Positions 2 to 30,502 of a stretch of DNA of 32,000 nucleotides are shown here, piece after piece. A model generated the notes under the pieces. It was not told the DNA's origin, made no database searches, and worked only from the letters and a program-made list of their open reading frames with translations. Both the position numbers and the translations under genes were made by a program. How positions within the stretch are numbered: the stretch's first letter is position 1; each line of letters begins with the position of its first letter. Origin of the DNA: Candidatus Kuenenia stuttgartensis. Lineage in GTDB: Bacteria > Planctomycetota > Brocadiia > Brocadiales > Brocadiaceae. The stretch is from positions 900,001-932,000 of the forward strand of contig NZ_LT934425.1 in assembly GCF_900232105.1 (NCBI RefSeq), read 5' to 3'.

Positions 2-562
2 CAGAAAAGAGAATTGTACAATACAAGAAAGGAAGAAAAAAGCAGCCAAGCTGCTTTATTTATCTTTCTGAATCGCACTTGCTTTAACGGGCTATACAGA
101 GTAAACAGTAAGAATTTATTCAATGTACCGATGGGTAGTTATAAAAAACCTACTATCTGTGATGGTAAAAACATTTTATCTGTAAGTAATCTTTTGCAAA
201 AAGTTGAAATCCTTTGTGGTGACTACGAAGCGACATTAGATAAAGCGACAAACAATTCATTCTTCTATTTCGATCCACCGTACAAACCATTAAGCGAAAC
301 ATCAAGTTTTAACTCATACGCAAAAGACGAATTCAATGATGAAGAACAAATAAGACTGAAAAACTTTTGTTCTAAATTAAATGTACTTGGTCATCAATGG
401 ATTTTGAGCAATTCTGATGTTAAAGGAAAAAATTCTGCTGATAATTTTTTTGATGATTTGTATAGTGATTTTACGATTTTAAGAGTTGATGCCAGAAGAA
501 GTATTAATGCTAATCCTGAAAAAAGAGGTTCCTTAAAAGAATTATTAATTACAAACCAATAA
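2..562 (+). CDS. Dam-family (D12 class) N6-adenine DNA methyltransferase, C-terminal part; the 5' end lies outside the window
   Basis: The reading frame is open back to nt 2. Motifs LFIFLNRTCFNGLYRVN..FNVPMG and the catalytic FYFDPPY are typical of Dam / DpnM / M.MboIA enzymes. The gene sits 8 nt upstream of a DpnII-like endonuclease gene. Confidence 0.85.
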   Translation, partial: QKRELYNTRKEEKSSQAALFIFLNRTCFNGLYRVNSKNLFNVPMGSYKKPTICDGKNILSVSNLLQKVEILCGDYEATLDKATNNSFFYFDPPYKPLSETSSFNSYAKDEFNDEEQIRLKNFCSKLNVLGHQWILSNSDVKGKNSADNFFDDLYSDFTILRVDARRSINANPEKRGSLKELLITNQ

Positions 563-570
563 AATACAGA

Positions 571-1410: not shown

Positions 1411-1412
1411 GT

Positions 1413-1571
1413 ATGGTATGTTCACATTTCAAATCCGAAGATAAAAACTTATATTTACTTCATGGAGATACAATGGTTCTCTTGTCTTAATTTGAACATA
1501 AATTTGATATGGCTTTTACATGTCCACCATATTTTATATCTAACAACGGACTTTTCAATTCAAAGTGGTAA
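1413..1571 (+). pseudogene. Remnant of a second GATC methyltransferase (DpnA / M.MboIC-like N-terminus), with an in-frame stop and a truncated end
   Basis: My own translation gives MVCSHFKSEDKNLYLLHGDTMVLLS*FEHKFDMAFTCPPYFISNNGLFNSKW*. It starts 3 nt after the endonuclease stop. It matches the N-terminal layout of beta-class N6/N4 methyltransferases (..L.HGD....L......DMIF.DPPYF.SNGG). There is a TAA at 1488-1490 and no downstream SAM-binding half. Confidence 0.6.
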
Positions 1572-1619
1572 AATCGTGAGCGTAAATAAAGGTTAATTGG
1601 ATAAATCAGGTGGCTTCGA

Positions 1620-6596: not shown

Positions 6597-9500
6597 TTAC
6601 ATGCCTTTTGCTACCGTTATGCCCTTTGTTGCTACAAATGATTTTATGCTTACCAGATCATGATCATCGCGGGCGATGATAGTAATCACGTTTGGACCTT
6701 CTTTTAACGAATGTTTTGTATCAATCTTCAATGACGATTGTTGTCTTGGGCTTACATGTTTGTTTGATTTGAAAAAGATTTTATCATTGTTTATCAGTAC
6801 ATAAGCATGTTTTACGTGGGTATCGTCTTTTACAAGTGCAGAAATGGATAATTCTTCCTCGCCAAATAAAATGTTTGGCACGCCATCCAGAGAAATGGTG
6901 GGGGGGATTCGCTGTATAAACATTTCGAGTTCGTCGGATGATTTTCCGGCATCATTATTTACCGCAGTTACGTCCTTTGCAGAAACCCATCCGTATCTAT
7001 TATTAGGAAGTTCCGCCCTGTACCAATCAGCGTTGCTGACGTCAGACTTGAGAATTGTGCCCTCGTTCATCATTGATAAAACAGGGGTGTCAAATGACAT
7101 TCCACCATACAGTGGAATATGGTTTTTGTTTATCTTCAAAAGTTTGGAACTGGCCGTCAGCTTTTGGGGGACACCGGCAACCACGGAGAATTTTAATGTA
7201 TTACTTAAAAAAGCGCCGAAGATAGAGTCGGAAATAATAATATCCACATTAAATTCATTAGAAGCAATTGTTTCTTTGACGTTAAAAGTTAATTCCGCCT
7301 CCTTGATTTCTCCCGGATTTAATTGACCAATTTCAACCCTGCCTTTTTCTACAAACACCTCTTTGTCACTCAAATTTCTGAGGGTAACAACCGTTTTTTC
7401 GGAAATCCCATTTCCCATGTTTTTTACCATGACAAGGAGATTAATATTTTCGCCTTTGTTTATTAATCCATCACCGTTATTTTTGCCTGAAGAGTTTGTT
7501 GCCTGATCTAAAATCTGATAAGAAAAGGCAAAAAGCGGCTGAGGCAATGCCTCTATTGCCACAGTTAAATTAAGATCTGCCGGGTTGTTTTTATTTAACT
7601 CTTCAAATTTAATAGTAATTTCATCTTCCCGATCAAGTGAATTTTTTGGTATTTCTATCGTTTTGGTGTACGTCTTTTTACTTCCTTTGCCTATTTTACC
7701 AAAAATAAATTCATGTTTATCGTACAGACCGTTTTTGCTGGAAGAAATTCCGCGCAATTGATAGAGAGGTTTATCCCCCGTGTTTTCAATAGTTACCGTA
7801 AGCGTAATTTTTTCTCCGGCCTTTACCCGTTTATTAATGGGGTTTGTTAAAAAAGTAACATTTGTTGCGGATGCCCCTTCATTTATCCCTTCAGACCAGT
7901 CAATACTCAAGCTATCAAGCGCCTGTGCTATTTTCTTTTCTTCCTCTTCGGAAATTGCGTCAATTACTGAAAGAGAATTTTGCAGAAAACCTTCCTCTTT
8001 TTTCCATGTAGAAGTGTTTGCCAGTAATTTTCTGGCGAAGACAATATGGAAATCTTTATCAAAATCAGGCAGTTTGTAAGGGTCTTCGTCTTCCGCAGGT
8101 TCCACCTCCGCCTCTTTCCCGGCAACCGCGTCCTCTTTTTTTTCCTTTATTTCATGGAAGTACTTAAGGGTAGCAAAGGGAAATGCATCTTTGTGGTGGT
8201 CGTCCAAATGTTTTTTCAGATCTTCTTCCCTGATTGCCGTGATGCCATGAAAAAGATTGATGTTGTCCTTTTCTACGGTCACCGGAACAAGCTGTATGTC
8301 CGGTGTAATGCCAAAAGATTGAATGTCGGTAAAAAGAGGGGTAAGATATTTTGCGATGGTTAATTTTAGCGCCGAACCGTCCATTAACTCTATAAGCTGC
8401 TGGACAGACCCCTTGCCAAATGTTCTGTCTCCGACGATTATCGCACGGTTATTTTCCTTTAGAGCGCCGGCAACAATTTCAGCCCCTGAGGCGCTTCCTG
8501 CATCGACAAGCACCACTATGGGGTACAGTTCCTCGTCAGTATCCGTTTTTTTTGCATCGATCACTTCTCTGGGATGGCCTCCAGGCCCAACGGTAACAAC
8601 AATAGAGCCACTTTCCAGAAATTTGTCAGACACCTTGATTGCCTGGTCTAACAAACCACCCGAATTGTTCCGCAAATCGAGAATGAGTCCTTTCATTTTA
8701 TCATTGTTTTTGTTTAATTGTTTTAACTGCTCATTAAGGCGCTGAGAGGTATCATCCTGAAAATTCCTGATTCTTACATAGCCATAACCTCCTTCAATAG
8801 ATGCGGATTCTACCGTAGGAATTACTATTATTTCCCGTTTGAGGGCAAAAAGTTTTGTCTCTACTGCTTTATGTTTTAAAATGGAAAGTGTGACGGTTGA
8901 ACCCTGATCACCACGCAGTTTCCCAACAGATTCGGTAAGGTCCATATCTACGGTCGATTCTCCATCAATTTCCACAATTTTATCTCCTGCCTTTATTCCT
9001 GCCACTGCAGCAGGGGTTCCTTCAATGGGAGAAATTACCGTCAGAACGCCATCTCTTATTCCTACCACCATGCCGAGTCCTCCGAACTTGCCGGTAGTGC
9101 CAATCTTAAATTCGGTAAATTGTTTTGGCGGTAAGATAATGGAATGCGGGTCAAGCTGCGTCAACATGCCGTTGATTGCCGTATATTCCACATCGCTGGC
9201 GGTAAGTGATGCGTTCTCTTCCCGATGCTTATTGATAAAATCCAGGGCATCCTGCAGCACTTTGAAAACATCCTTGGACCGGTGAACTTCTGACAAATCA
9301 AATGTCTTTGAAACAGTGTCAACCGTAACGGTGTTTATCTTCTTCTCCTCAGAGTAGTCTACCAAGACTTCAGGTATGACTCTTTCCTGCCAATCAAGAG
9401 CTCCCTTAACCATTTCAACATTATCAATACGGTCAGGGTCAACATACAGGCGGTTAATATAGGAAAGTACAATTCCGGGAAGGCGAAATTTATATTCAGT

Positions 9501-9638
9501 ATCTTCTTTTACTGACAGATTTTCAAAATGGGGTTCCAGACCAAATGTTTTATTGAAAACAACAAAAAAACCGGAAATGGAAGATATAGAAATTATAATT
9601 ATTATTAACACATACTTAAACGGATGCTTTAATCTCAT
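6597..9638 (-). CDS. S41-family C-terminal processing (tail-specific) peptidase with a PDZ domain and a long C-terminal extension containing an SH3b-like segment
   Basis: The PDZ domain reads [41 protein letters not shown]. The S41 core has [13 protein letters not shown] and [39 protein letters not shown]. The SH3b-like segment is [21 protein letters not shown]. I prefer the ATG at 9638 (AAAGGAAA upstream) over the TTG at 9659. Confidence 0.9.
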   Translation of the reverse strand: [1013 protein letters not shown]

Positions 9639-10135
9639 GAATATTTCCTTTTTGATCAAAAAATCAAAGTAACTTTACACAATGTAACTAAACCCTTACT
9701 CAAAAATATAAAGATACGCCGTAAACTGTTGAATAGCAATGATTCGCTCATTAAAAAGGCGAGTAATACGGCAAGAGACCATGCATAACAATTACGATAA
9801 ATGTAGTATCGATTTCATTTTTTGTAAAAGTCCAATACATAACATAATTTTAATGCATTGTGGGAGCTAATCCATGAATTGCCGCCACATAAGGCCAAAA
9901 TAGTGTTTTCCGGTGGTCGATCTCCTTGAAAAACAAAACTCTCACTAACTGGCACTACTGTACACAAGTAGCAATTTGAGTATAGAGAGAAGGAACAGAT
10001 TTATCAAGGAAATTTGCCTTGCCCAGTGATTATGAAAAAAGCATTTGATAATTATAGGAAGAACAGATAAAATGCTACGCTTGTCATAAATTTAGCTTCA
10101 TTCATAGAGTTTTTAGAAAATTTAAGAGGGAAATA

Positions 10136-13606: not shown

Positions 13607-14708
13607 TAAAAATCTGTTTTTTTCTTGCATTTGAATTGTTTCTAGAGTATTAAATTCTGCATGAATCCATTTCTCAGTGAAAAAACCCGAATAGAATTTA
13701 AAAAAGCACATAAGAAAGAGCCTCATAGACGTCATGCCGACCGAATCAAAGCTATACTTCTTCTTGATTCAGGATGGAGTTATGAAGAAGTAGCAGAGGC
13801 GCTCTTGTTAGACGATCAAACAATCAGGAATTACGAAAAACTATACAAAGATAAAGGTTTTGACGGGCTTTTATCTGACAATTATATTGGCTGTGTGCCA
13901 AAACTCACCTGCGAACAAGAAGAACAATTAAAAGATCATATCAGGAAAAACAACTATAGCGCGGCAAAAGAAATTGTTGAATATGTAAAACAGACATTCA
14001 ATAAAATCTATACACCCGAAGGAATGGTACATACCCTCGATAGATTAGGCTTTACTTACAAGAAAACTACAATAGTTCCAGGCAAAGCAAACCCTGAAAA
14101 ACAAAAAGAATTTGTCGAAAAATACAAACAACTCAAAGAAGAGAAAGCCCCCGGAGATAAGATACTTTTTATGGATGGAGTTCATCCACAGCACAATTCT
14201 ACGTCTGCATATTGCTGGATAGAGAAAGGCAAAAAGAAGGAAATACCCTCTAATACCGGCAGGAAAAGAATAAATTTAAACGGTGCTATTGACATAGAAA
14301 CCTTTGAAGTAACAATCCGGGAAGATGAAAGCATCAATGCTCAATCAACAATAAAGCTTTTCCATGAAATAGAGTCAAGGTATGCTCAAGCCGGTACTAT
14401 TTACATAATCTCTGATAATGCTAAATATTACAGGTCTAAGTTGGTCAAAGAATACCTTGCAAATTCGAGAATAAAGATCAAATTTCTCCCTTCCTATTCA
14501 CCCAATTTAAATCTCATTGAAAGATTATGGAAATTCTTTCGCAAAAAAATATTGTATAACAAGTATTATGATACTTATGAGAAGTTTAAAAACAAATGTT
14601 TAAGTTTTTTCAAAAATATTAACGAGTATACAGATGAATTGTCTACTCTTTTAACTGAAAATTTTCAAATTATTGGCGAGCAAATTTCGAAAACCTGATT
14701 TGTTTGAC
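13607..14708 (+). mobile_element. IS630-family (Tc1/mariner-like) insertion sequence, about 1.1 kb; the boundaries are approximate
   Basis: It contains the transposase gene. The boundaries come from TA dinucleotides at 13605-06 and 14709-10. Removing the element at those sites rejoins the two HicB-like fragments in frame. The terminal inverted repeats are only imperfectly visible (aaatctgttttt versus aaaacctgattt). Confidence 0.6.
13661..14698 (+). CDS. IS630-family DDE transposase
   Basis: The N-terminal HTH is ILLLDSGWSYEEVAEALLLDDQTIRNY. The DDE-type blocks are FMDGVHPQHN, IISDNAKYYRS and LPSYSPNLNLIERLWKFFRKK. Confidence 0.9.
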   Translation: MNPFLSEKTRIEFKKAHKKEPHRRHADRIKAILLLDSGWSYEEVAEALLLDDQTIRNYEKLYKDKGFDGLLSDNYIGCVPKLTCEQEEQLKDHIRKNNYSAAKEIVEYVKQTFNKIYTPEGMVHTLDRLGFTYKKTTIVPGKANPEKQKEFVEKYKQLKEEKAPGDKILFMDGVHPQHNSTSAYCWIEKGKKKEIPSNTGRKRINLNGAIDIETFEVTIREDESINAQSTIKLFHEIESRYAQAGTIYIISDNAKYYRSKLVKEYLANSRIKIKFLPSYSPNLNLIERLWKFFRKKILYNKYYDTYEKFKNKCLSFFKNINEYTDELSTLLTENFQIIGEQISKT

Positions 14709-20129: not shown

Positions 20130-21572
20130 CTATTTCACAAGCACTACTTTCAACGTTGTTTTTAGATTATTGTACTTAAATTTCACCTTTGAGGTTCCTT
20201 TCTTCTTTTTTGCAGTAATGTTAAACGCGGCCTCACCGTAGGTTTCTCCTGCAATTGTCATTGTTTTACGTGGAGATGCGGATACCTTCTTTTTGCCATC
20301 TTTGTTTTTCTTCACCGTTGCTTTAACCTTCTCGCCTGATATTGGCAGACAACCTTCGGGGGTTATCAAATACACGGTAACTTCAGCCGTTTGCCCCTTT
20401 TTCAGCTCTATCTCTTCGGGAGAAACAACTATCGAGGTAACTTCACACTCCGATGGGATAGAAGTCTCCGTTGGGTTTGGAGTTGGGCTTGAGGCTGGAG
20501 GTGTTGGCGTAACAACCGTTGCTGCCGCCAATGTAAAGTCACGGACAGTGGTATCGCCTTCAACTATCGCCACGCCTGAAGCCGGCGCCTGAATATATCC
20601 TGCCGCAGAAGCAATAAACGTATAAATTCCATCCGATATATTCTCTAACTGGTAATACCCTGTTGTATCAGTAGTCGTTTTATAGATACCCGAAATGCTT
20701 GATACCGCAGCTCCATTGATACCTTCGCCCGTGTCTTTGTCAGTTACGAATCCGGCAAGTACACCCAATGTTTCACCAGGAAGCGTGGGAGTTGCAACAG
20801 TCACCGGTGTTGGTTCCGTTGTTGGCGTAGCAGTTGGAGTAGCAACAATCGCTGTTGAAGTTGGAGTCGGAGTTGAAGTACTGCCACCACCACCACTACC
20901 GCCGCCGCCACCTCCACCTCCACCTCCACCACCGCCACCGCCGGTTGCTGGGGTAGGAGTTGGGGTTGGTGTAGCTGCCGACAATTGGGACATCGTAAAT
21001 GTGTAGGTATAAACATAGTCTCCTTCAGTTGTTTCATCACCGTTTTCTTGTACTCCTGCCGCATAAAAAGTTACAGGATCATCTATTGTCGTAGAGGGCG
21101 CATTCCACAGTACCTGCCATAAGGGCTGACTGCCTCCTAAAATAGTTTGTGATATGTATTGGTCTGATTTAGAAGCCGATTCACCAACAACGGCGGTGAA
21201 AGTGCCAATGTAATTATTATTCGCATCTAACGCTGTCATATCAAAGCCGTGATTTGGAAAGGCGTCGGTATCGGAACCTTCAAAGGAGACCGTAATCTCA
21301 ACGCTTTCCCCCAGAGTATACGTTTCGGGGGCAGATATTGAAAATATGGCGCTTCCTGAATTCAGCTCAGTTCCAGTGTGACATTCAGAACACGCATCAC
21401 CATCACCATCACCATCGGCATCGGCATCAAGAGGGGAACCTGTATGGTCGTTCCACTCCTCCCCCAATGCCATCGTTGACTTGCAGATTTGTCCAAATAT
21501 AGGACTTACCATAATGCACAACACACAGCATGAAAGGATAAAATACATACACTGCATAAACTTGTTTCGCAT
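20130..21572 (-). CDS. Secreted multidomain protein: signal peptide, Asp/Gly-rich segment with a single CXXCH motif, T/P-rich and poly-Gly linkers, CarboxypepD_reg-like domain, and C-terminal Lys-rich Ig-like (Big_2-like) domain
   Basis: The hydrophobic N-terminus is FILSCCVLCIMVSPIFG, followed by DADADGDGDGDACSECHTG. The poly-Gly run is G15-S-G4. GFVTDKDTGEGINGAAV...GYYQLENISDGIYTFIASAAGY is typical of carboxypeptidase-regulatory-like domains. I prefer the ATG at 21572 (AAAGGAGG upstream) over the GTG at 21584, which abuts the SD. Confidence 0.75.
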   Translation of the reverse strand: MRNKFMQCMYFILSCCVLCIMVSPIFGQICKSTMALGEEWNDHTGSPLDADADGDGDGDACSECHTGTELNSGSAIFSISAPETYTLGESVEITVSFEGSDTDAFPNHGFDMTALDANNNYIGTFTAVVGESASKSDQYISQTILGGSQPLWQVLWNAPSTTIDDPVTFYAAGVQENGDETTEGDYVYTYTFTMSQLSAATPTPTPTPATGGGGGGGGGGGGGGGSGGGGSTSTPTPTSTAIVATPTATPTTEPTPVTVATPTLPGETLGVLAGFVTDKDTGEGINGAAVSSISGIYKTTTDTTGYYQLENISDGIYTFIASAAGYIQAPASGVAIVEGDTTVRDFTLAAATVVTPTPPASSPTPNPTETSIPSECEVTSIVVSPEEIELKKGQTAEVTVYLITPEGCLPISGEKVKATVKKNKDGKKKVSASPRKTMTIAGETYGEAAFNITAKKKKGTSKVKFKYNNLKTTLKVVLVK

Positions 21573-22222
21573 GGTTCGCTGCACCTCCTTTAAAAAATTG
21601 TAATAACTTCCCGGATAAAAACGGAAAGAGGGTTCTGTTGATTAAGCCTCCCATTACTCCCCTTTATGAAAAAACCGGCCTCTCCGACCTATTGATAATG
21701 CTGCATTTTATCTTTAACATTTTGGGAAACCGGAGTAGATCAATAGTGTCATAATATCCTCTTGTAATCGAATCCTTCTAAAACGCCTTTTTTTGCAACG
21801 CTCGTAATAAAGCAATCGCTTAGTTCTACTGAAAAATATGTCTACTGATGAACAACTATTGTGCCATTAACGGAATATTGTTTTTAAAATATCACAAGTC
21901 TTATTTTCAAAAGCAGTTATTAATAACATTGCCACCTATGTGATAAATGAATCAAAAAAACCTCCCGATATAACAAAACAAACACACGCAATATTTGCGC
22001 AAAATAAAACACGAGGTTTTCATTTGCTGTAACAGAGAGATTATCACCTCTTCGAAGCCTGCAAACACAGGTTTTTAGTTTATATAGCCTAACAAATTAG
22101 GTTTTCTAAACATAAAAACATTGCATGCGCATTGAACAAGGGATTGCAGTCCCTTGTTTAAATTCAATTTTCGAAACCTATACGCTTGTGGCGATACGCA
22201 GTATTTGCATGAAGCACGCCAA

Positions 22223-22571: not shown

Positions 22572-22847
22572 ATGAATTTTTCAAAACCAAAGAAGAAACA
22601 GAAAGGTGTGATAATACAGGATATTGGCAAAGAAGTAGTCCTTCGTAATGTTGATGAAAAAACGATTCATGTACTCAATACTACGGCAAGGATTATATGG
22701 GAACTTTGCGATGGCGAGCATACCATCGGGGATATGGAACGTCAATTAAGAGAAACGTTTTCCATACCCGACGATACAAACATTTGCAACGATATAGTAA
22801 ATACGCTGACTGTCCTGGCAGAAAAAGGCATGTTGGAGGAATTATAA
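22572..22847 (+). CDS. PqqD-family peptide-binding protein (RiPP recognition element type)
   Basis: The 91-aa product has the canonical pattern: VVLRNVDEKTIHVLNTTARIIWELCDGEHTIGDMERQLRETFSIPDDTNICNDIVNTLTVLAEKGMLE (LN.ta..iW.l.DG..t..ei...l...y.....a..Dv..fl..L...g). Confidence 0.85.
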   Translation: MNFSKPKKKQKGVIIQDIGKEVVLRNVDEKTIHVLNTTARIIWELCDGEHTIGDMERQLRETFSIPDDTNICNDIVNTLTVLAEKGMLEEL

Positions 22848-23029: not shown

Positions 23030-23638
23030 TTAAATAAGGCGTCGATTTATAAAAATGCTCTTATTTTCTGGCGCTTTCCCTCTGCATAAAAAAAGAAATA
23101 TTACTTTACGGAACAGTAAAAAGAGAAAACGTGTGCCACGATTCACAATTGTTTTATTACAATCCTGTTTATTTCCTGTGAATATGTTTCTTTGAAATCC
23201 GCACAACGCGCGAACAACAGGGGTACTCCTTATGATCAACCATCCTGTTGATCTGCCTGCGAAAGTGTCAAGAGAGAGCATCTTTTCCCCTCGTTTAATA
23301 GCGGATACTTTGCCTATTATTTCACTATGGCTCACCACCGGATCGGCATGCGGCACATTGTCTCCCTTTGTAATGAAGGAAAAGCCCGTACCCTTTTCTG
23401 AGATAGTTAATACCCTGTGTACAATAAGCTTGTTCTCCGATCTGAAGGCTATAATATCGCCACGCCGTATCTGTGAATAGCCACACTCAACCAGGACATT
23501 GTCCCCTTCCCTTATGAGCGGATACATACTCCTGCCAACAATGGGGATAGTAAACATTTCATTGGTTTGATCCCATACATTGACGATAGCATGCAGCACT
23601 TCGCCTGAAATATTGTTATGATTTTCTTTTTGCATCAT
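23030..23638 (-). CDS. S26B-type (SipW/Sec11-like) signal peptidase I homologue
   Basis: The Ser box is VGRSMYPLIREGDNV, followed by RRGDIIAF. The His box is LIVHRV, and FITKGDNVPHADPV and IIGKV follow. The hydrophobic segment is at the C-terminus (FLFLLFRKVIFLFLC). Confidence 0.75.
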   Translation of the reverse strand: MMQKENHNNISGEVLHAIVNVWDQTNEMFTIPIVGRSMYPLIREGDNVLVECGYSQIRRGDIIAFRSENKLIVHRVLTISEKGTGFSFITKGDNVPHADPVVSHSEIIGKVSAIKRGEKMLSLDTFAGRSTGWLIIRSTPVVRALCGFQRNIFTGNKQDCNKTIVNRGTRFLFLLFRKVIFLFLCRGKAPENKSIFINRRLI

Positions 23639-23943: not shown

Positions 23944-26900
23944 TTACTTTATTTTTACCCTTATTTTTTCGGCAATATTATTCACACTGAATACCACAAC
24001 CGCCTTTCCCTTTTTCTTTGCGGTAATGACAAAAGATGCTTGTCCATCTACATCAGTTACAGCAGTTTTGTTTGCAATTTTTGCAATTTTCTTTCCCTTT
24101 TTTATGTTTGCCTTTATCTCAAAACCCTCCGTATTGCCATTGGTTTCGCATGTTATTGTTATGAGGACTTCCCCTTCTTCTCCTTTCTTAAGCACTAATT
24201 TTTTAGGTTCTGCTTCAATAGCACTTATTGTACATTCCTGTGGTAAAGGAGTAGGCGTAACGGGTATTCCGTCGTCAGCAACAACATGCAACCGTGTTGC
24301 TGGATCCCCAAACAACACAAAAGTCTCTACCAATTCACTCCAATAACTACTCTGGGAGTAAGCATCCAGTTTTGCTTCTGTGCTGATCTCGCCTAAACCA
24401 TATGAAGAACCGGTAAAGACCGATTCATAAAAAGAAAGCATAAGTAATCTGTGTCCCGATGTATAGCTCAGGGCGGTTGCCGCCCATACGGCGATTGCCC
24501 CTTTATCCTGTAATCTCTGAAATTCTTCAGCAACTGAAACCTGTGTGCTTTTCCCCGTAAAAAATCCGTTAAGGCAGTTTGCAACTGTGACAACCGGCAG
24601 TTTATACCAATTATCCAGCAACGCAATGTCATCTGTGGTATAAATAGACGTGCTTGCATTCAGTCCCCACATATTTACAGCCCCGTGTCCAGTGTAATTC
24701 ACCATAAAACAACCGTTATTTATATTCTGGGTTATATTAAATGCCACATCATCGTTTGCAGTATAATCGCCTACATAAACCCTTTTTGCGGTATAGTTAT
24801 CAGGTAATAGTTCAATGATTTCTTCCGAAAGACTTTCAAAAGAAGATTGATCGTCATCCGCTACGAGTAAGACGTTTTTTGCCCAATCTTCCTCGGACGG
24901 ATGCTGATCATAGAATATTACCTTATTAATAATGTCTTCCGCCTGTTCGATTGTTTGCGCACAGAGCCGTCCGATATGCATGTCAGGGAGGATATCATTG
25001 CCACTTACAAGTACAAACCAGTTATCCGAAGGCGTCTCTCCCAATTCGTCAGTTTCTATAATCTGGGAAGGGACGTAATTTATCGTGCCTGATGCTAAGT
25101 TATCGTTGTAATCCTGATACGCGTCTCCTATTAATACAACGTATGCAGGGGCGGGTTCCTGCCAATTGTTATACGTGTAAGACAGGAAATCCCGTATTGC
25201 CTGCGGGGAAAAAATACCGTCATTAAATTCATCATAAATATCGCCAACCTTCACCGTAACCACCCTTAAACCATCATCGATGCGATGGCTGGCCAATGCA
25301 AGCGCATTATCATAAAAATCTTCATGCGTGATAATAATATAGTCCGCTCCCTTATCGGATGATTTCCATGATGATGTTTCATCCTTTTCAATTGCAAAGG
25401 GAGTTTTATATTGCGCTAATGTCAATGCCAGAAATCTTGTATCAGATTGGGCAACCCCTTCGAATTGTAATGTATATCTTTTGTTGTCGTTTACAATATT
25501 TGTGTTAATTACGCGCACAACTGCGTTGTGGTCTGTAATGTCAAATGCCTCCATATCACTGCCGGTGAAGGAGGATACTTCAAATTGATAGACGCCTTCA
25601 GAAGGCGCACGGAAAAATAGCTCATCATTTTCTGCAACATACGTATCAAGGTAGTCTATCTCTGCCCAGTTGATCAGCAATTGATCAACCGAAGCCCCTG
25701 TATCACCCACGGTTTCTACCGTAATGGTATTTTTCCCATTGTTTAAATACTCATGGGATACGGTTGCTTCATGATTGAAGACTATTCGTCCATCCCAGTA
25801 TTGATCGTCTATCTCTTTGTCATTTATATATATCTTTGTATGGTGATCCGGGTCACTCTTGCTGACGTCTGTATATCCCTTTAATTGCACCCGTATAGCA
25901 GCGGTCTCTGGACCCGAAAGGATATTTTTTATATTCAGGGTAAGCTCTTTTGTTTGCGGTGCAGTCAGTTTGCCGCCCCAGAAATAATGATCCTGTCCTT
26001 CACCCTCCGGCATTGTTTGCCAGTAATATGTATTTTCTTCAACATGGATCGTTGCTGGAAAGTAATCAGGAACAATAGCGTTGCCCGAAGTGGCGCCGTC
26101 GTGGATATTCATACGGACGCCACTGGTAGCGCCGGCGGTTAGCCAGTAAACATTTTTATCGGTATAGATATCGGTATATTCTTCGCCATAAAAAACGATA
26201 GTATCCGAAGTATTAAATACACCATCCTCTTCACCTTCAATAAATATGGCAACGTCCTCTCCCTTATTTGTCATAGTCAAAGTGCGGGGATCTATTGCGT
26301 CCACATCAAATCCGGCATCGATAAGATCATTGTAAGTTAATGTATACATGCCTTCTTCTTTCACGGTTATTTTAAGCCTGGGGGAAACCTCAGCGCCGGA
26401 ACTGTCCATTTTTCTTTGAACGGGGGTACGGTATGAATTCTCCGCAATCACAGGGCGTTTTATATTGTGGTAATTTATGATTTTCTTTTTAAGAAGATTT
26501 TCAAAAAAAGGACTTGCCATTGAAGTTTTTTTTTCAGGAGAAAGGTGACCCTCTTTCCATGAAACACGGGCGACAATCTTTCGGTAAATGCGTACCTCGC
26601 CAGTGACGGGATTGAACTGAACAGGCGTGAAATGTACTTGTGCGACCGGTTGATCGCGCAGGTATCCTTTATTGCCCATTTTTACCGGTGTGTCTGGAAA
26701 GAAGGCGTTAGAGGTATATATATGCTGATTTTCAAAGAACGTCTGCTTTATACTGCCGGAGGGGAATGTATCCTGGTTTTCCCCTTCTATCCCGGATTTA
26801 GGGGCAGGATATATATTGTATCCCTGCAAGGTTTCGTATTGTGCATCTAAAATATCAAGAGAGACGCCATGAATGACCGGCAAACCAACCATTGTTCCGC

Positions 26901-27198
26901 ACTGTGGCAATTGTGGTTCCCCAGGCATGGCGCTTTGTATGGTGTCTTGTATACAAATACGCTGATATGTTTTTCCCTCATGTTGTAATGTTTCGGTATG
27001 AAAGCCGTCTATAGTAAATTCAAGTTCAATTGACCGGCTGTCTGATGGCAATAATGTAACAGAGGCGTTGCACAATCCTGTATACCACAGCATCAGGAAG
27101 GATAGTATGGCGACTAGAGGTGCAATGACCATGCACAGTGAATAATAAGAACGGTTGCGGCGTACGAAAAATATTTTTACTATCCATCTTCTTATCAT
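23944..27198 (-). CDS. Membrane-anchored C25-family (gingipain-like) cysteine peptidase with a C-terminal Lys-rich Ig-like domain
   Basis: The N-terminal TM anchor is MVIAPLVAILSFLMLWY. C25 hallmarks are ADYIIITHEDF...LASHR, IFSPQAIRDFL, YVVLIGDA, PSDNWF, DMHIGRL, the His box VNYTGHGAVNMWG and the Cys box VTVANCLNGFF. I prefer the ATG at 27198 (GGGGGAGAAAG upstream) over the listed TTG at 27213. Confidence 0.85.
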   Translation of the reverse strand: MIRRWIVKIFFVRRNRSYYSLCMVIAPLVAILSFLMLWYTGLCNASVTLLPSDSRSIELEFTIDGFHTETLQHEGKTYQRICIQDTIQSAMPGEPQLPQCGTMVGLPVIHGVSLDILDAQYETLQGYNIYPAPKSGIEGENQDTFPSGSIKQTFFENQHIYTSNAFFPDTPVKMGNKGYLRDQPVAQVHFTPVQFNPVTGEVRIYRKIVARVSWKEGHLSPEKKTSMASPFFENLLKKKIINYHNIKRPVIAENSYRTPVQRKMDSSGAEVSPRLKITVKEEGMYTLTYNDLIDAGFDVDAIDPRTLTMTNKGEDVAIFIEGEEDGVFNTSDTIVFYGEEYTDIYTDKNVYWLTAGATSGVRMNIHDGATSGNAIVPDYFPATIHVEENTYYWQTMPEGEGQDHYFWGGKLTAPQTKELTLNIKNILSGPETAAIRVQLKGYTDVSKSDPDHHTKIYINDKEIDDQYWDGRIVFNHEATVSHEYLNNGKNTITVETVGDTGASVDQLLINWAEIDYLDTYVAENDELFFRAPSEGVYQFEVSSFTGSDMEAFDITDHNAVVRVINTNIVNDNKRYTLQFEGVAQSDTRFLALTLAQYKTPFAIEKDETSSWKSSDKGADYIIITHEDFYDNALALASHRIDDGLRVVTVKVGDIYDEFNDGIFSPQAIRDFLSYTYNNWQEPAPAYVVLIGDAYQDYNDNLASGTINYVPSQIIETDELGETPSDNWFVLVSGNDILPDMHIGRLCAQTIEQAEDIINKVIFYDQHPSEEDWAKNVLLVADDDQSSFESLSEEIIELLPDNYTAKRVYVGDYTANDDVAFNITQNINNGCFMVNYTGHGAVNMWGLNASTSIYTTDDIALLDNWYKLPVVTVANCLNGFFTGKSTQVSVAEEFQRLQDKGAIAVWAATALSYTSGHRLLMLSFYESVFTGSSYGLGEISTEAKLDAYSQSSYWSELVETFVLFGDPATRLHVVADDGIPVTPTPLPQECTISAIEAEPKKLVLKKGEEGEVLITITCETNGNTEGFEIKANIKKGKKIAKIANKTAVTDVDGQASFVITAKKKGKAVVVFSVNNIAEKIRVKIK

Positions 27199-27216
27199 CT
27201 TTCTCCCCCTCAAGGA

Positions 27217-28359
27217 CTATGTACACACTTCGGCGCATACTATATCCGCCATATCTTGTAAGCGACCGGCAGTTAAGTGGTAGCATCGTGCTTTTGCGAT
27301 AATATTTGATAATTCCATGAACAATCGAATCGAACTGCCTTTAAATTCGTCCAGCAATATTTTTGATTTATAACTGCCCTGGTAATTCCCCAGAAGCGCA
27401 AGAGCTGCCTGGCTAACGGGTATGGGAAGAAGTCTTGCATTGCCGTTGAACGAAGCGTGTCCTTCTGTTCCCTTGAGGACGTCTAGCACAAGTATTTTGT
27501 GCATGGCGCATATTGTCTCTATTTTAGAAAGAATTTTATTTGCCTTGTCCGCACGTAGTATGAGTGCTGGAAAACTACCATTTACATCAACGTACATATT
27601 CCGTACCCCGGCAATGTTTTCTATGAGACGCAACACTTCATCATTCATTTTATCAACGAGAATGGTTAAGTCCTGTTCGTTGTTTTTCGTAATTCCCTTC
27701 TCATTCTGCAAAAAGAAAATATACTCAACGGGCACTTTCGTGCCAGAACTGCCCGGCAGTATTTGATCAATATCCAAAAGCAGTTTATCCAGCCATTCCT
27801 CTCCGCCGATAGTATTGTCCGGAAATCCAACCAATGATAACGTATCCTTTCGAACCCGCAGGCTTCGGGGAAACGGGTACACTAAATGGTCGTGTCTCCC
27901 CAGGGCAGCCATTTCATCAGAAAGAAATTTAAACCCTCTCTTCAGAAGTGTTAGTACTAAGGTAGTCTTGCCATACCCGCCATCTGCCACGATAAGCACG
28001 CCGTGGTTATCGAAGGAAACTACACCGGCATGTATTAAAAAATGGCTTTTTATGCGGGTAATAATTGACATGAGTATGCATTCATAAGCAAATCCGTCTA
28101 ATAATTTAGGATCATTAAGCGGCCATATCTCATCATTGCACATTAATACCGGCTTGCCAAAAATGTTGTCAGGATGTGTAATTAAAGAGAATTCTATCTG
28201 CGATGCAGGAAGAGAGGGAAATTCATTCTTCAGAAACCGACTATACATCTTTGTAAAAAGGTCAATAAATTCAATGGAATCAGATTTGATTGTTACCACC
28301 AAATCAAAGAAATAGAGCGTTACTTTGTTAAGAAGATACGGTTTTTGTAATAATCCCAT
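27217..28359 (-). CDS. HprK-related P-loop kinase (homologous to the HPr kinase/phosphorylase C-terminal domain)
   Basis: IHAGVVSFDNHGVLIVADGGYGKTTLVLTLLKRGFKFLSDEMAAL matches the HprK C-domain pattern (lHa..v...g.gvli.G.sG.GKSt.al.L...G..lvsDD). The stop is 18 nt before the C25 start. Confidence 0.8.
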   Translation of the reverse strand: MGLLQKPYLLNKVTLYFFDLVVTIKSDSIEFIDLFTKMYSRFLKNEFPSLPASQIEFSLITHPDNIFGKPVLMCNDEIWPLNDPKLLDGFAYECILMSIITRIKSHFLIHAGVVSFDNHGVLIVADGGYGKTTLVLTLLKRGFKFLSDEMAALGRHDHLVYPFPRSLRVRKDTLSLVGFPDNTIGGEEWLDKLLLDIDQILPGSSGTKVPVEYIFFLQNEKGITKNNEQDLTILVDKMNDEVLRLIENIAGVRNMYVDVNGSFPALILRADKANKILSKIETICAMHKILVLDVLKGTEGHASFNGNARLLPIPVSQAALALLGNYQGSYKSKILLDEFKGSSIRLFMELSNIIAKARCYHLTAGRLQDMADIVCAEVCT

Positions 28360-28383
28360 GGGGTATTTATATATTAAAAAAAA

Positions 28384-28410
28384 GGTAACACTTTAGAGTT
28401 TTGAAAAACC
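28384..28410 (+). repeat. Solo copy of the motif GGTAACACTTTAG-N4-TTTGAAAAA, 25 nt upstream of the kinase start
   Basis: The sequence ggtaacactttagagttttgaaaaacc has the same orientation as the copy at 22863-22888. The leftward flank (attaaaaaaaagg) also resembles the flank of the 18236 copy. Confidence 0.55.
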
Positions 28411-28705
28411 ATAAAAGCAAAATCATGCAGTTCAGCAGTCATTCAGCATACCCGCTCTTCAATTCCACCCCCTACACCCCCGCCAGCGGGGGACAGTTTA
28501 TGCAACTGCTCTTGTTCTCAAACTCCGGCATGGAAACGAGCGTTTTTAATTTTTCAAAAGACGAAATTGATACAAAAATATTGTATACTCAAGATGCTCA
28601 CAATTTGTGATTTGCCCCCCCGTGAGTAAGAAAGCCCCGTTCGTGAGAGCAATGCCTCTTCCAGATTTTCTAACGGGGTTTATAGACAATGTCGTACAAG
28701 TTCAA

Positions 28706-28730
28706 CACGGACAAACAAAGTTTGTCCGTG
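28706..28730 (-). terminator. Stem-loop (perfect 11-bp stem, 3-nt loop) between the small-peptide region and the kinase gene; a possible attenuator or terminator
   Basis: The sequence is cacggacaaac-aaa-gtttgtccgtg. On the minus strand it is followed by ttgaacttgt, only a weak T-tract. Confidence 0.45.
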
Positions 28731-28753
28731 CCACCCAGATATCAATTTAAAAT

Positions 28754-28819
28754 TCACATTTTATGCGCTTCTTGAGTATAACCATTCATGTAACCGGCAT
28801 GGGCAGTTACCAGGATGCC
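28754..28819 (-). other. Out-of-frame, start-less duplicate of the 3' end of the small ORF (GILVTAHAGYMNGYTQEAHKM*)
   Basis: The DNA ctggtaactgcccatgccggttacatgaatggttatact aligns with ttaggcgctgcccatactggttatgtaaatggcggcaat of the upstream ORF (about 24 of 39 identical). The fragment is in the +1 frame and bounded upstream by a TAG. Only non-canonical starts are available (ATC or CTG after an AGGTGG). Confidence 0.35.
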
Positions 28820-28835
28820 CTATCCACCTGCTGTG

Positions 28836-28967
28836 CTATCCAAGAATATTGCCGCCATTTACATAACCAGTATGGGCAGCGCCTAATTTCTCAAGCAGTT
28901 CTTCATCTGTATAAGTTTCAATCTTTGGCGGCTCATACGTCAACACGGGTCCATTTTGTACATTCAT
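28836..28967 (-). CDS. Small ORF of 43 aa, absent from the ORF track: candidate precursor peptide MNVQNGPVLTYEPPKIETYTDEELLEKLGAAHTGYVNGGNILG
   Basis: This is my own translation of the minus strand. The ATG at 28967 is preceded by AAGGAGG with a 6-nt spacer (gaaaggaggttgcacATG), and the stop is a TAG at 28838-28836. The peptide has an acidic helical leader-like half and a Gly/Asn-rich tail. The gene lies upstream of, and co-oriented with, the kinase and peptidase genes. The listed plus-strand ORF 28763-28996 is its antisense shadow. Confidence 0.6.
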   Translation of the reverse strand: MNVQNGPVLTYEPPKIETYTDEELLEKLGAAHTGYVNGGNILG

Positions 28968-29091
28968 GTGCAACCTCCTTTCAAAAATGTGTCTGATGTT
29001 CATGATTTAATGGTATCTTAACTTCTACACTTCCCAGAAGAGATAGCGCTCTCTCTGGAAAAAAACTATTCCTTACAATGTTTTCCACGTT

Positions 29092-29967
29092 TTACTCCGA
29101 CACTATTACCCGCACCTTAATTGGCCCATGCATGGTGCTCTTGCCATTTGTATCAATATCTTCCAATGTGTAAAAGTATCTGCCACTGCGATCAAGGATG
29201 TCTAAATAGCTGTAGCTTGCACCATAGACCGCATCGCCAGATGCTTCGATTAATTCATCATTAATTCTGGTGTACGGACCTCCCCTCTGCTTTGCGCGGT
29301 GAATGTTGAAGCCTGCGTTGTATATTTCAGTGACAGTTTCCCATTCCAGCATGATTTCTTCTTCAAATGCGGTAGCCGTAAAAGAGGTAAGCTCTACTGC
29401 GGTAGTTTCACAAAGAACCTCCAAATCTATCGCACTGTCATCAACTGCGGCAGTTTGTTTTTTGCCGTTTACAGATACCTGAGCATGTATATTTAAATTG
29501 TCATATGTACCTTCTGAAAGAGACACTGCAGCTTCCCATCCCTCAGCTTTTCCGCTGTTAAGTCCTATCCACGCAAAATCCGGTGGTGTGCCATCATTGT
29601 TATCATCACCATCAACAAGTTTGGTGGATTTCCCTGACTTTATAAAATTGTCATCCGGCGATGCCAACACTTTCCCAGTCACACCTAATACCAAAGCATA
29701 CAGAATTTCATTTGTACAATCATAACGAAGATAAAGCTTTGCATCGATGGAAGGATTTTTCTTATCAGATCTACCCGCTCTCCACATATTGGCAAAAAAA
29801 TCGCCGCTCCCATCTTCTGCCAGATTCCATTCACTTTCATCACCATCTACCGTCGCCGTGCCAAAAGCTGGCACTGGAGGACTCGCGGCAAAGGCCGATG
29901 AAATAAAACTATTATTCATTATTACACACACTATTAATGCAAATAATGTTATTCCTGCTTTAAACAT
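29092..29967 (-). CDS. Secreted protein of unknown function with a conserved-looking C-terminal beta-sandwich module
   Basis: I chose the ATG at 29967, which gives a classical signal peptide: MFKAGITLFALIVCVIMNNSFISSAFA|ASPP. The C-terminal module is VELTSFTATA..IMLEWETVTEIYNAGFNIHRA....GPYTRIN..LI.A......ASYSYLD......RYFYTLEDIDTNGKSTMHGP. Confidence 0.6.
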   Translation of the reverse strand: MFKAGITLFALIVCVIMNNSFISSAFAASPPVPAFGTATVDGDESEWNLAEDGSGDFFANMWRAGRSDKKNPSIDAKLYLRYDCTNEILYALVLGVTGKVLASPDDNFIKSGKSTKLVDGDDNNDGTPPDFAWIGLNSGKAEGWEAAVSLSEGTYDNLNIHAQVSVNGKKQTAAVDDSAIDLEVLCETTAVELTSFTATAFEEEIMLEWETVTEIYNAGFNIHRAKQRGGPYTRINDELIEASGDAVYGASYSYLDILDRSGRYFYTLEDIDTNGKSTMHGPIKVRVIVSE

Positions 29968-30502
29968 GTATTGTTTCCTTATAAATAATGTTATTGGGAT
30001 TAGCTCACAAAAAAGCTGTTTATTAAACTCCATGCGCTTGGCAAGGGTCTGCACGTTGTTGAAATAATCAATTGATATGCCAATATGATCTAATAATTTC
30101 AGATTTATTGTAATTAATTGCCTAACAATACTTTAGGAATAATATTTTTTTCAGATTATGGTAAACCTGTCAAACAACGAAAGGATAAACCATTGTATAT
30201 TTGTTTTTTTTGCAAAATTTGCAGAAAATCAAACACAGCTCGAAAGCATTGTGATTTGAGGGATTATACAGGCAAAGAGAAAATGTGAAAAATGAAGTCA
30301 CCTTTTTCATTGTATTGGGACGCAATATTTGCGTATAAATAGGGGGATTATTGGTGGAAAGGGCTTGGGTGGCGGAGGTGGTTGTTTTCTGTGACCGTTA
30401 CTTTTGTGGCATTGATAAAAGGTATGTATTTTAGATGTCTCAATTAAGCATCGGAGATGATACTGTTGGTTGTATTTTTACAAAAATCTCACTTCATAAA
30501 AA

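Follow-up and report, generated by a model that had tools for sequence, protein, structure and literature searches.

KsCSTR_16760 of Candidatus Kuenenia, the probable precursor of an LPP-like RiPP, and the core remnant downstream of it

The locus

The window analysed here is a stretch of 32,000 nucleotides from the genome of the anammox bacterium Candidatus Kuenenia stuttgartensis (NZ_LT934425.1, positions 900,001 to 932,000), and the positions given below are counted from its first letter. On its minus strand a short reading frame, KsCSTR_16760, extends from an ATG at 28967-28965 to a TAG at 28838-28836 and has as its product MNVQNGPVLTYEPPKIETYTDEELLEKLGAAHTGYVNGGNILG. Its neighbours include genes for a PqqD-family RiPP recognition element (RRE), an S26 signal-peptidase homologue, a PorU-like C25 peptidase, an HprK-related kinase and a secreted protein with an FN3-like tail (Table 1).

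Table 1. Features of the locus, with positions in the window
Feature	Position	Strand	Remarks
PqqD-family RRE, 91 aa	22572..22847	+	PF05402 E = 2e-11; WP_099324213.1
Archaeal-type (SipW/Sec11-like) S26 signal-peptidase homologue	23030..23638	-	Putative catalytic S37/H74/D99; proposed leader peptidase
PorU-like C25 cysteine peptidase, 1089 aa	23944..27213	-	Peptidase_C25 E = 2e-96, plus Propeptide_C25; accessory module, not in all related loci
HprK-related kinase, 380 aa	27217..28359	-	P-loop GGYGKTT; Pfam Hpr_kinase_C E = 3e-5, sub-threshold
Strong stem-loop 3' of the remnant	28706..28731	-	About 11-13 bp, 3-nt loop, T-run absent
Leaderless +1-frame core remnant	28754..28819	-	GILVTAHAGYMNGYTQEAHKM then stop; sixteen nt past the stop of KsCSTR_16760
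Precursor peptide gene KsCSTR_16760	28836..28967	-	43 aa plus stop; family conservation and codon-level purifying selection
Predicted core (H32-G43)	28839..28874	-	HTGYVNGGNILG; from family core patterns
Predicted leader M1-A31	28875..28967	-	Cleavage position predicted
G29-A30-A31	28883-28875	-	G29 and A31 invariant in 24-25 genes
Acidic stretch TDEELLEKL	within predicted leader M1-A31	-	Read from the sequence
Putative RRE-binding motif Y11-E-P-P14-K-I16	28937-28920	-	Within predicted leader; Y11 and P14 invariant
Shine-Dalgarno AAGGAGG	28974..28980	-	6 nt 5' of ATG; read directly from the sequence; also kept in L001 and L017
Secreted 320-aa protein	29092..30054	-	Last ~100 residues (29095-29439) FN3-like; gene end 124 nt upstream of peptide gene

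An in-frame ATG further upstream would give a peptide of 55 aa, but that ATG has no Shine-Dalgarno sequence and the homologues begin some 8-10 residues N-terminal of the Tyr of the YxxP motif; the longer form is disfavoured on both grounds. What a preliminary description of this DNA had reported directly from the letters on the reading frame, its Shine-Dalgarno sequence, the leader motif and a second segment downstream all holds, on the minus strand. The frame was ‘unlisted’ only in the reading-frame track used for that description, NCBI having annotated it as hypothetical protein KsCSTR_16760. Its leader is acidic (six D/E, two K) and lacks a hydrophobic stretch.

Beyond the remnant the transcript could fold into a stem-loop of -21 kcal/mol (z = -3.7; equalled in 0 of 200 shuffles), which might act as a terminator or attenuator or stabilise the 3' end of the peptide mRNA. 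A promoter and terminator scan of the minus strand gave nothing convincing and overlooked this hairpin because it lacks a T-run; in the alignment, locus L001 has at the same place a different hairpin that is followed by one. An Rfam search of 28200-29300 returned a chance-level match only.

The peptide family and selection on its leader

A search for homologous short reading frames, which the preliminary description had advocated, uncovered a large family without a name, of 858 clusters at 90% identity (E <= 1) and 411 representatives at 50% (E <= 0.001), and showed its members recurring at related loci beside PqqD, an HprK-like kinase and S26. All are short, unnamed peptides with the common leader YExPxVxTYTDEEILEELGxA and a short, variable core, so that the precursor signature is this leader followed by [QH][TA]x[YST]. 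The association of peptide, PqqD-type RRE, HprK-like kinase and S26 extends over Brocadiales, Chloroflexota and one deltaproteobacterium, and minimal loci (PqqD-peptide-kinase-S26) occur without C25 peptidase or any of the FN3-tailed proteins, considered below as its cargo.

Throughout the family Y11 and P14 do not vary, and in the 24-25 locus-derived genes Y11, P14, T18, L28, G29 and A31 are all invariant. Behind each of these invariant residues stand 2-5 synonymous codons (25 distinct genes), which argues that selection acts on the protein; the codon-level comparison, also proposed earlier, thus points to purifying selection. ‘Long’ members in which a further core follows in frame (P0036-P0038 and the like) were examined as possible two-core precursors; in P0036 at least, that core is an artefact of gene calling, a TAG having been translated as Gln.

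The cores begin with Q (74%) or H (18%), followed by T or A, and have a median length of 12 aa. At position +4, 75% of them have S, T or Y (n=249), and the first S/T/Y beyond +2 falls at +3 to +6 in 97% of the 249; the commonest candidate hydroxyl residue is Tyr. The Kuenenia core has no acidic residue. In the KsCSTR_16760 family the leader-core junction is placed 20 residues from the motif Tyr. Cleavage after the invariant T18 (I-E-T|Y-T-D, to be compared with F-E-T|xxS of the linear polyphosphorylated peptides, LPPs, introduced below) was considered and judged unlikely, T18 being only two residues past the putatively RRE-bound I16; the LPP cleavage site is 10 residues past the Val equivalent to I16 (PMC13381572). 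A double-glycine leader of the C39 bacteriocin type was rejected, the peptide having LGxA and not GG and no C39 transporter having been seen, as was a Sec signal peptide, since the leader lacks the combination of a positively charged n-region and a hydrophobic h-region.

Recognition element, kinase and S26 peptidase

The closest characterized system is the LPP pathway of Paenibacillus alginolyticus (genes lppA-K-B-S-D-N; Popov et al., Nat Commun 2026, PMC13381572). Among RREs in the PDB the best match of the window PqqD protein is LppB (9X8Z; BLASTP E = 1e-7). In the LppB crystal structure N33 and D70 hold the YxxP motif by its Pro kink and its Tyr hydroxyl (PMC13381572); N36 and D74 correspond to them in the window protein and are kept in the orthologues that span those positions. 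Nearly all loci that are complete enough encode a discrete PqqD-type RRE. With Y11 and P14 invariant, PqqD nearly always in the locus and the LppB-type Asn and Asp kept, the earlier suggestion that the leader motif Y-x-x-P-x-[LI] is what the PqqD protein recognises gains considerable weight.

That the S26 protein might be the leader peptidase had been offered as speculation, for which a precedent from experiment now exists. This is LppS, a SipW-like peptidase that removes the leaders of LPPs in an RRE-dependent manner (PMC13381572). The window protein, which scores 78 bits and above cut-off against TIGR02228, is detectably homologous to it (BLASTP E = 9e-16; 120 aa at 24% identity), and in the alignment its S37/H74/D99 pair with S29/H68/D93 of LppS; this triad is conserved among the loci, and G29 and A31 would stand, invariant, at -3 and -1 of the G-A-A|H site named in the preliminary description. 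As in LppS there is no N-terminal membrane anchor and the N-terminal helix is amphipathic. The very S26 protein of the window, WP_099324214.1, together with its PqqD protein, is in the supplementary table of LppS homologues, where it belongs to SSN cluster 6 with a co-localised RRE and its precursor is entered as ‘ND’ (PMC13381572). The kinase is syntenic in 14 of 14 loci.

A proposed LPP-like pathway

From the synteny, the S26/LppS and PqqD/LppB homologies, the core pattern and the family conservation we consider it likely, with good though not complete confidence, that KsCSTR_16760 is the precursor (A peptide) of a RiPP made by an LPP-like pathway. The peptide would be translated from the ATG at 28967, as read from the sequence, and the PqqD-type element would bind the leader strand Y11-x-x-P14-x-I16, to judge from its LppB-type Asn and Asp and the invariance of the motif. 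The HprK-like kinase may then phosphorylate a hydroxyl residue just past the junction, most likely Tyr35 (+4) or Thr33, by analogy with LppK, which polyphosphorylates Ser+3 of LPPs (PMC13381572). The cytoplasmic SipW-like S26 peptidase, to which the recognition element would present the substrate, is predicted to cut after G29-x-A31 or two residues later after A31-x-T33, and the product would be a peptide of ~10-12 residues within HTGYVNGGNILG. Against this reading are that modification, cleavage site and product are all predictions for Kuenenia, that the kinase falls well short of the cut-off of every curated HprK-related family, and that the model gives no role to the C25 peptidase and the FN3-tailed proteins; the differences from LPPs in leader motif, junction, hydroxyl residue, RRE class and gene content, set out below, also count against it.

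The downstream core segment

The preliminary description had seen in the second segment a tandem precursor array in which one copy has decayed. A 25-nt stretch, CTGCCCATACTGGTTATGTAAATGG in the gene (28879-28855), does recur in the remnant as CTGCCCATGCCGGTTACATGAATGG (28806-28782) with 20 of 25 positions identical, a score reached by 0 of 2000 shuffles; the offset is 73 nt and the remnant is in the +1 frame. The peptide that the remnant would encode includes VTAHAGYMNGYTQEAHKM. Sequence reading places a TAG before it (28822-28820) and finds neither ATG, GTG nor TTG. The remnant is confined to three Kuenenia genomes of the K. stuttgartiensis clade and absent from all other loci. Across the three, one copy contains a stop and near-invariant core residues are altered (H to R and Y to C in L017, T to A in the window); 9 of 39 sites vary (23%), as compared with 2 of 63 in the leader segment Y11-A31, and directly past the remnant the alignment of loci breaks into indels. 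Restricted to the one clade, devoid of start and leader and with key residues lost, the segment is, as far as its sequence goes, a non-functional leftover of partial tandem duplication situated in the 3' untranslated region upstream of the strong hairpin. The decay of one copy thus stands, but what was duplicated is a core fragment alone, with no trace of a second leader, and not a precursor in tandem array.

Might the second segment nevertheless be functional, through a non-canonical start or recoding, or as a silent cassette that recombines into the expressed gene? An AGGTGG is present just 5' of it, it has been retained in three genomes with the preceding TAG being TAT in two of them so that the frame is open, its version in L001, AHTGYVNGYNVF, resembles real cores of K. 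hertensis, and another lineage has independently duplicated part of a core. Such a function is nonetheless very improbable. Leaderless, the product could not enter an RRE-dependent pathway, for which reason the non-canonical initiation at ATC or CTG envisaged earlier is unsupported, and an ATG, GTG or TTG start is lacking. Nor does a read-through or frameshift fusion commend itself, since to reach the segment from the reading frame two TAG codons must be passed and a +1 shift made. The substitutions at near-invariant core residues, the variability, the adjacent indels and the absence from all other loci tell in the same direction. The A-H-A before G of the remnant, once pointed to as a signal-peptidase-I site, is given no weight.

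C25 peptidase, FN3-tailed proteins and alternative readings

The secreted 320-aa protein had zero matches in Pfam and NCBIfam searches; its AF2 model (pLDDT 85) was matched by Foldseek to FN3 folds, which suggests an FN3-like tail. A search of a word-indexed protein database with this tail gave 6 matches only, from which a small alignment was built. In the roughly 20 loci examined for pairing, the peptide gene is 60-450 nt 3' of an FN3-tailed gene in 15 of 16 cases where C25 is present, as against 0 of 10 peptide genes in C25-less loci, from which the FN3-like domain is absent altogether. PorU and GPI transamidase (clan CD) are transpeptidases with an amine acceptor, and removal of a leader would free an N-terminus.

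Could the matured peptide then be a partner in protein sorting, as acceptor, anchor or cofactor, with the PorU-like C25 peptidase processing FN3-tailed proteins and joining or pairing them with the peptide encoded downstream? The C25-dependent pairing just given favours this, as do the resemblance of C25 to the PorU sortase (283 bits against NF033707), the diversity of cargo N-terminal domains (Ice_binding, IgGFc_binding, Big_1, Beta_helix and that of the 320-aa protein of the window) in front of a common tail, and an orphan pair of cargo and peptide genes elsewhere in the Kuenenia genome, apart from the enzymes. All of this support is contextual. The idea remains unlikely, since the minimal loci manage without C25 or cargo, L006 and L009 contain several FN3-tailed genes that no peptide gene follows, C25 has an N-terminal signal or anchor whereas kinase and anchorless S26 look cytoplasmic and the Kuenenia cluster has no exporter, C25 falls short of the 420 bits set as cut-off for PorU, and the tail is a generic FN3 fold and not a T9SS C-terminal domain. 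No precedent was found for a link of C25 with a RiPP-type peptide, and T9SS genes other than C25 were not seen. A more specific and rather speculative version, to which we give a low probability, has an LPP-like pathway coupled to a C25 transpeptidase in anammox bacteria and some Anaerolineae: each FN3-tailed protein would be encoded with its own precursor peptide, which after leader removal, and possibly phosphorylated on Tyr or Ser, would serve as acceptor or anchor at the cell surface. In that event a ribosomal peptide would be no free natural product but a stoichiometric tag for sorting.

Two further alternatives dispense with an LPP-like pathway. One takes KsCSTR_16760 for a small protein or signalling peptide that stays unmodified, for instance Sec-exported and cut by a housekeeping signal peptidase, with the enzyme genes as mere neighbours; G-x-A does fit the -3/-1 rule of type I signal peptidases and S26 does exceed the cut-off of the generic archaeal-type model, but the acidic leader without hydrophobic core, the LppS-like anchorless S26 with its amphipathic helix and a four-gene association kept across three phyla make it hard to credit. 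The other, a lasso-peptide precursor whose leader is removed by a B2 protease and whose core is cyclised to a lariat, is the reading that the ‘lasso-like’ label of the preliminary description invited. The YxxPx[LI] motif with a discrete PqqD-type B1 is indeed common to lasso systems, and HprK-like kinases are known tailoring enzymes of lasso peptides of the paeninodin type (PMC13381572). As far as the leader is concerned the label is apt; the lasso system as such is not there. Neither an asparagine-synthetase-like cyclase nor a transglutaminase-like B2 was found among the scanned reading frames of the window or the called genes of the annotated neighbourhoods L018-L020, 0 of 249 cores combine G/A/S/C at 1 with D/E at 7-9 if cut after GxA (18 of 249 if cut two residues later), and the Kuenenia core is without an acidic residue. 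The lasso reading has next to no probability left and is effectively refuted already, and the LPP-like pathway is the reading that we retain.

What the LPP-like reading offers

On the LPP-like reading KsCSTR_16760 is the missing precursor for the signal peptidase/RRE gene pairs of Brocadiales, of which the LPP paper has no more than a table row, left unstudied (SSN cluster 6, precursor ‘ND’). The logic of RRE, HprK-like kinase and SipW-like peptidase would not be confined to Bacillota and would serve a large peptide family with hundreds of metagenome clusters, for whose further members the signature YExPxVxTYTDEEILEELGxA then [QH][TA]x[YST] is usable in genome mining. It yields predictions of a Tyr/Ser/Thr phosphosite and of a G-x-A or A-x-T cleavage site. 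A further and unexpected observation is that in anammox bacteria, organisms with a poorly understood cell-surface biology, the system is genetically coupled to a C25 peptidase and to surface proteins with an FN3-like tail.

Comparison with known systems

A literature search on the Kuenenia locus tags, or on anammox together with PqqD, lasso or HPr kinase, found nothing relevant. With paeninodin-type lasso peptides the locus has in common a [Y/W]xxPx[L/V/I] leader, a discrete PqqD-type B1 and an HprK-like kinase, there acting on the precursor; it differs in that lasso cyclase and B2 cysteine protease were not found, the cores would be unable to form the macrolactam and the candidate leader peptidase is a serine enzyme, S26. 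HPr-rel-A (TIGR04352 kinase A with TIGR04353 PqqD) and SynChlorMet (ScmC/ScmD) likewise combine an HprK-like P-loop protein with PqqD and provide the best NCBIfam matches of the kinase, but the TIGR04352 match is sub-threshold (58.8 bits, E = 4.5e-16, cut-off 200), that to ScmC has E = 0.075, TIGR04353 does not match the window PqqD, and the radical-SAM partners are absent. With PorU of T9SS the likeness is that a C25-family peptidase adjoins secreted proteins with a common C-terminal beta-sandwich; apart from the sub-threshold C25 score, the difference is that the shared domain is FN3-like, without Pfam or NCBIfam match, and in P0127 precedes a true T9SS tail.

The LPP pathway is closer, and yet the Kuenenia system is not strictly LPP: the motif past YxxPxV differs, and NTP-transferase and MsbA-like exporter (LppD) are absent from the reading frames of the window and from the extra flanks of L001. 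Past YxxPxV the family leader reads TYTDEEILEELGxA and that of LPPs LxHQxIxFET, within YxxPxVLxHQxIxFETxxS, so that YxxPx[VI] is the only shared part. LPPs have been called restricted to Bacillota (PMC13381572), whereas the hosts of Kuenenia-type loci are Planctomycetota, Chloroflexota and a deltaproteobacterium. The candidate residue is mostly Tyr at +4 and not Ser at +3, and LppK did not act when Ser was replaced by Tyr or Thr (PMC13381572). Kuenenia-type cores are much shorter, the Tyr is separated from the junction by 5 residues more than the 15 of LPPs (Popov et al.), the Kuenenia cluster adds a C25 peptidase and FN3-tailed secreted proteins, and in the tables of PMC13381572 the window RRE is classed as ‘RRE others’ with an LPP RRE count of 0 and the window S26 is in SSN cluster 6, not cluster 1.

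There are shared features as well. In both systems a discrete PqqD-type RRE is combined with an HprK-like kinase and a signal peptidase I of the archaeal (SipW-like) type, and the precursor is short, with an N-terminal YxxPxV, a conserved leader and a variable C-terminus. The S26 and PqqD proteins of the window are detectable homologues of LppS and LppB in which the catalytic and putative leader-binding residues are kept, and the +4 pattern of the Kuenenia-type cores parallels Ser+3 of LPPs in placing a conserved hydroxyl residue just after the junction. Sister loci add to the likeness, carrying NTP_transf_5 of the LppN type (L012, L014 and L020) and ABC exporters (ABC-2, in L011 and L014).

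The peptide gene and its family

On re-reading the sequence, the ORF, its Shine-Dalgarno element, the +1-frame segment that follows and the DNA repeat joining the two were all as the preliminary description had them, so the observation is confirmed. The ORF is on the minus strand of this Candidatus Kuenenia stuttgartiensis window, and its product is identical to an NCBI hypothetical protein, KsCSTR_16760.

Features of the peptide locus and readings of the remnant
Feature	Position	Strand	Remarks
Peptide ORF	ATG 28967 to TAG 28838-28836	minus	product MNVQNGPVLTYEPPKIETYTDEELLEKLGAAHTGYVNGGNILG
Ribosome-binding site AAGGAGG	28980-28974	minus	6 nt 5' of peptide ATG
Second segment (remnant, window)	28819-28754	minus	+1 frame, 16 nt after ORF stop; GILVTAHAGYMNGYTQEAHKM, stop, with GG, stop ahead of it
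Remnant, L001			GGYGILATAHTGYVNGYNVF, stop
Remnant, L017			GGYGILVTARAGCVNGYYETNF...
Stem-loop, strong	28731-28706	minus	3' of second segment; -21 kcal/mol, z = -3.7
Secreted 320-aa protein	29092-30054	minus	upstream of peptide gene
FN3-like domain of 320-aa protein	29095-29439	minus	
HprK-related kinase	27217-28359	minus	downstream of peptide gene, same strand
C25 cysteine peptidase, PorU type	23944-27213	minus	downstream of peptide gene
S26 signal-peptidase homologue, archaeal-type	23030-23638	minus	downstream of peptide gene
PqqD-family protein	22572-22847		convergent to kinase, C25 and S26 genes

Kinase homologues were collected at 14 loci, in Brocadiales, Anaerolineae and other Chloroflexota and one deltaproteobacterium, and in nearly all of them a small ORF with the same leader lies 5' of the kinase gene. 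A profile built from 24 peptides matched 858 protein clusters, and an exhaustive HMMER scan with a 106-member profile gave 411 representatives at 50% identity. Members are all short, the named ones are 'hypothetical', no listed member has a Pfam domain, and NCBIfam release 20 holds no model for this family or for LppA, the precursor of the linear polyphosphorylated peptides (LPPs). The consensus is (K)LPxYExPxVxTYTDEEILEELGxA, then Q/H, then T/A, then a variable tail, the core having a median length of 12 aa. With the Kuenenia peptide numbered M1 to G43, Y11, P14, T18, L28, G29 and A31 are invariant and each is encoded by 2-5 synonymous codons among 25 distinct genes; this codon-level comparison, which had been proposed as a check, demonstrates selection at the protein level. 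Sequence and comparison show the peptide to be a translated, selected product with a conserved RRE-binding motif, and the synteny of the peptide, PqqD, kinase and S26 genes is likewise conserved.

Other residents of the window can be recorded here. A 484-aa protein at 20130-21584 (-) has matches to Kustd1514, an S-layer glycoprotein family of anammox bacteria, and to a choice-of-anchor V domain. The C-terminal end of the Kustd1514 model is also matched by the last ~100 residues of the C25 peptidase (23944-24300 (-)). In a DpnII-type restriction-modification module at 14-3245 (+), a DpnII endonuclease and an N6/N4 DNA methylase accompany a D12-class adenine methyltransferase, which the window edge truncates. 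An IS630-like transposase (DDE_3 + HTH; 13661-14698 (+)) has a riboflavin kinase/FAD synthetase gene on one side and NAD salvage genes on the other. A tail-specific, PDZ-containing S41 peptidase of 1020 aa with a CARDB-like region occupies 6597-9659 (-); the presence of an S41/PDZ peptidase close to a family peptide in another locus, L022, is probably coincidental.

A relic of a duplicated core

The second segment has a TAG immediately before it, no start codon and no leader. Its 25-nt DNA repeat (28879-28855 versus 28806-28782, offset 73 nt) is identical at 20 of 25 positions, a score reached by none of 2000 shuffles. The segment is confined to the K. stuttgartiensis clade, and its version in L001, one of two other Kuenenia genomes carrying it, resembles genuine K. 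hertensis cores (HTGYVNGYNLLS); an older 3' end was probably displaced out of frame by partial tandem duplication. The earlier reading of a decayed copy stands: leader and start are lacking, residues near-invariant in real cores are mutated (H to R, Y to C, T to A), and variation among the three genomes affects 9 of its 39 sites, compared with 6/36 in the live core and 2/63 across Y11-A31. Directly 3' of the remnant the alignment breaks up into indels. The second segment is a 3'-UTR relic.

On a groundwater metagenome contig (L021; ENA ERZ1292631, 380-500) the 3' 21 nt of a core (AAGGGCGATAGCGCCTTTTAG) recur ~60 nt downstream with 18/21 identical. This partial duplication arose independently of the one in Kuenenia, which suggests that events of this kind recur as these cores evolve. 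A database protein with two apparent cores, P0036, was rejected as a gene-calling artefact in which TAG is read as Gln, the real gene ending ...GDSAF (checked on L021); the long products P0037, P0038, P0052, P0061 and P0130 look like P0036, the protein that the TAG check covered.

Proposed maturation

The leader would extend from M1 to A31, with the S26 peptidase cutting after the invariant G29-x-A31, a site that fits the -3/-1 small-residue rule. Alternatively the cut may fall after A31-x-(T/A)33, with Thr at -1 as in LPPs. The kinase would phosphorylate the hydroxyl residue next after the junction. Counting H32 as core +1, S/T/Y stands at +4 in 75% of 249 cores, and the first S/T/Y past +2 falls at +3 to +6 in 97% of them. 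Candidate phosphosites in Kuenenia are Tyr35 or Thr33.

C25 peptidases and FN3-tailed proteins

The loci are of two architectures. A minimal type (e.g. L004, L007, L011-L014, L019) has PqqD, peptide, kinase and S26 genes, NTP_transf_5 and an ABC exporter being optional. In the C25 type (window, L001, L002, L005, L006, L008-L010, L018, L020) a secreted-protein gene with a shared C-terminal domain lies 60-450 nt upstream of 15/16 peptide genes; such pairing is seen for 0/10 peptide genes of the minimal type, from which the domain is entirely absent. One minimal-type cluster, in a deltaproteobacterial MAG (L014, 9965-14813), looks degraded or badly assembled, with its kinase split across three frames, an S26 homologue without the catalytic Ser motif and NTP_transf_5 in two pieces, yet it retains two complete precursor genes whose cores are rich in Cys.

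The shared domain, of ~100 aa, is predicted to fold like FN3 (pLDDT 85); no Pfam or NCBIfam model for it was found, nor any family match for the 320-aa protein. It is the common tail of otherwise unrelated secreted proteins (window, L002, L005, L006, L008-L010, L015, L018, L020) whose N-terminal parts are as diverse as Ice_binding, IgGFc_binding, Big_1 and Beta_helix, and in one distant protein this same domain precedes a genuine T9SS tail. In K. stuttgartiensis a second family member, P0080 (MEEKKLPVYELPKVVSYTDDELLEKLGTAHTGYVKCDNIL), lies downstream of an Ice_binding protein with this tail (L015/L016, 6659-8123), at a long distance from every kinase, PqqD and S26 gene, and so is taken as half of an orphan pair that would rely on the window enzymes in trans. 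The coupling of C25 peptidase, FN3-like tail and peptide, for which the LPP model has no place, is the reason for considering the peptide a partner in a PorU-like sorting reaction, to which we assign a low probability.

Relation to linear polyphosphorylated peptides and other classes

A lasso peptide, the flavour given to an otherwise essentially right preliminary interpretation, is rejected outright: 0/249 cores are compatible. The window ORFs include neither a lasso cyclase nor a B2 protease. The HPr-rel-A and SynChlorMet families were also set aside, with scores far under the cut-offs.

LPPs were described in Bacillota, to which the main text restricts them (Popov et al., Nat Commun 2026, PMC13381572). 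A YxxPxV... leader is bound by the discrete RRE LppB, whose N33 and D70 hold the Pro kink and Tyr hydroxyl of YxxP; the HprK-like kinase LppK polyphosphorylates Ser+3, accepting Ser only, and the SipW-like signal peptidase LppS cleaves the precursor, LppB being required (PMC13381572). The same triad of RRE, HprK-like kinase and SipW-like peptidase is present in the Kuenenia cluster. The window S26 protein matches LppS at E = 9e-16, the catalytic S29/H68/D93 of LppS aligning to S37/H74/D99 of the window protein, and the orthologues of the latter keep the triad and an amphipathic, non-membrane N-terminal helix, except in L014, where Ser is lost. LppB (9X8Z) is the best PDB RRE match of the window PqqD protein (BLASTP E = 1e-7), in which N33/D70 correspond to N36/D74, conserved among orthologues covering these positions. 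The partner proteins retain their catalytic and leader-binding residues. The exact window proteins, WP_099324214.1 (S26) and WP_099324213.1 (PqqD), are listed in Supplementary Data 1 of PMC13381572 as an LppS homologue and co-localised RRE (SSN cluster 6, RRE class 'others', precursor 'ND'): the published work caught the enzymes and missed the peptide.

There are also differences. The motif after YxxPxV is not that of LPPs, the central leader residues bear no relation to the LPP motif, the LPP junction is five residues closer to YxxP, Tyr predominates at the candidate site whereas LPPs are phosphorylated at Ser+3, and the window RRE lies outside the LPP clade in the authors' own classification (PMC13381572). 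Neither an NTP-transferase nor an MsbA-type pump is in the window; NTP_transf_5 (LppN type) is present in sister loci L012, L014 and L020, and ABC exporters in L011 and L014. The window peptide is the precursor, not assigned before, in an LPP-like pathway found outside Bacillota, and is accompanied by a decaying partial duplicate, and the Kuenenia system, which works like the LPP pathway but is not LPP sensu stricto, is best filed as a separate variant.
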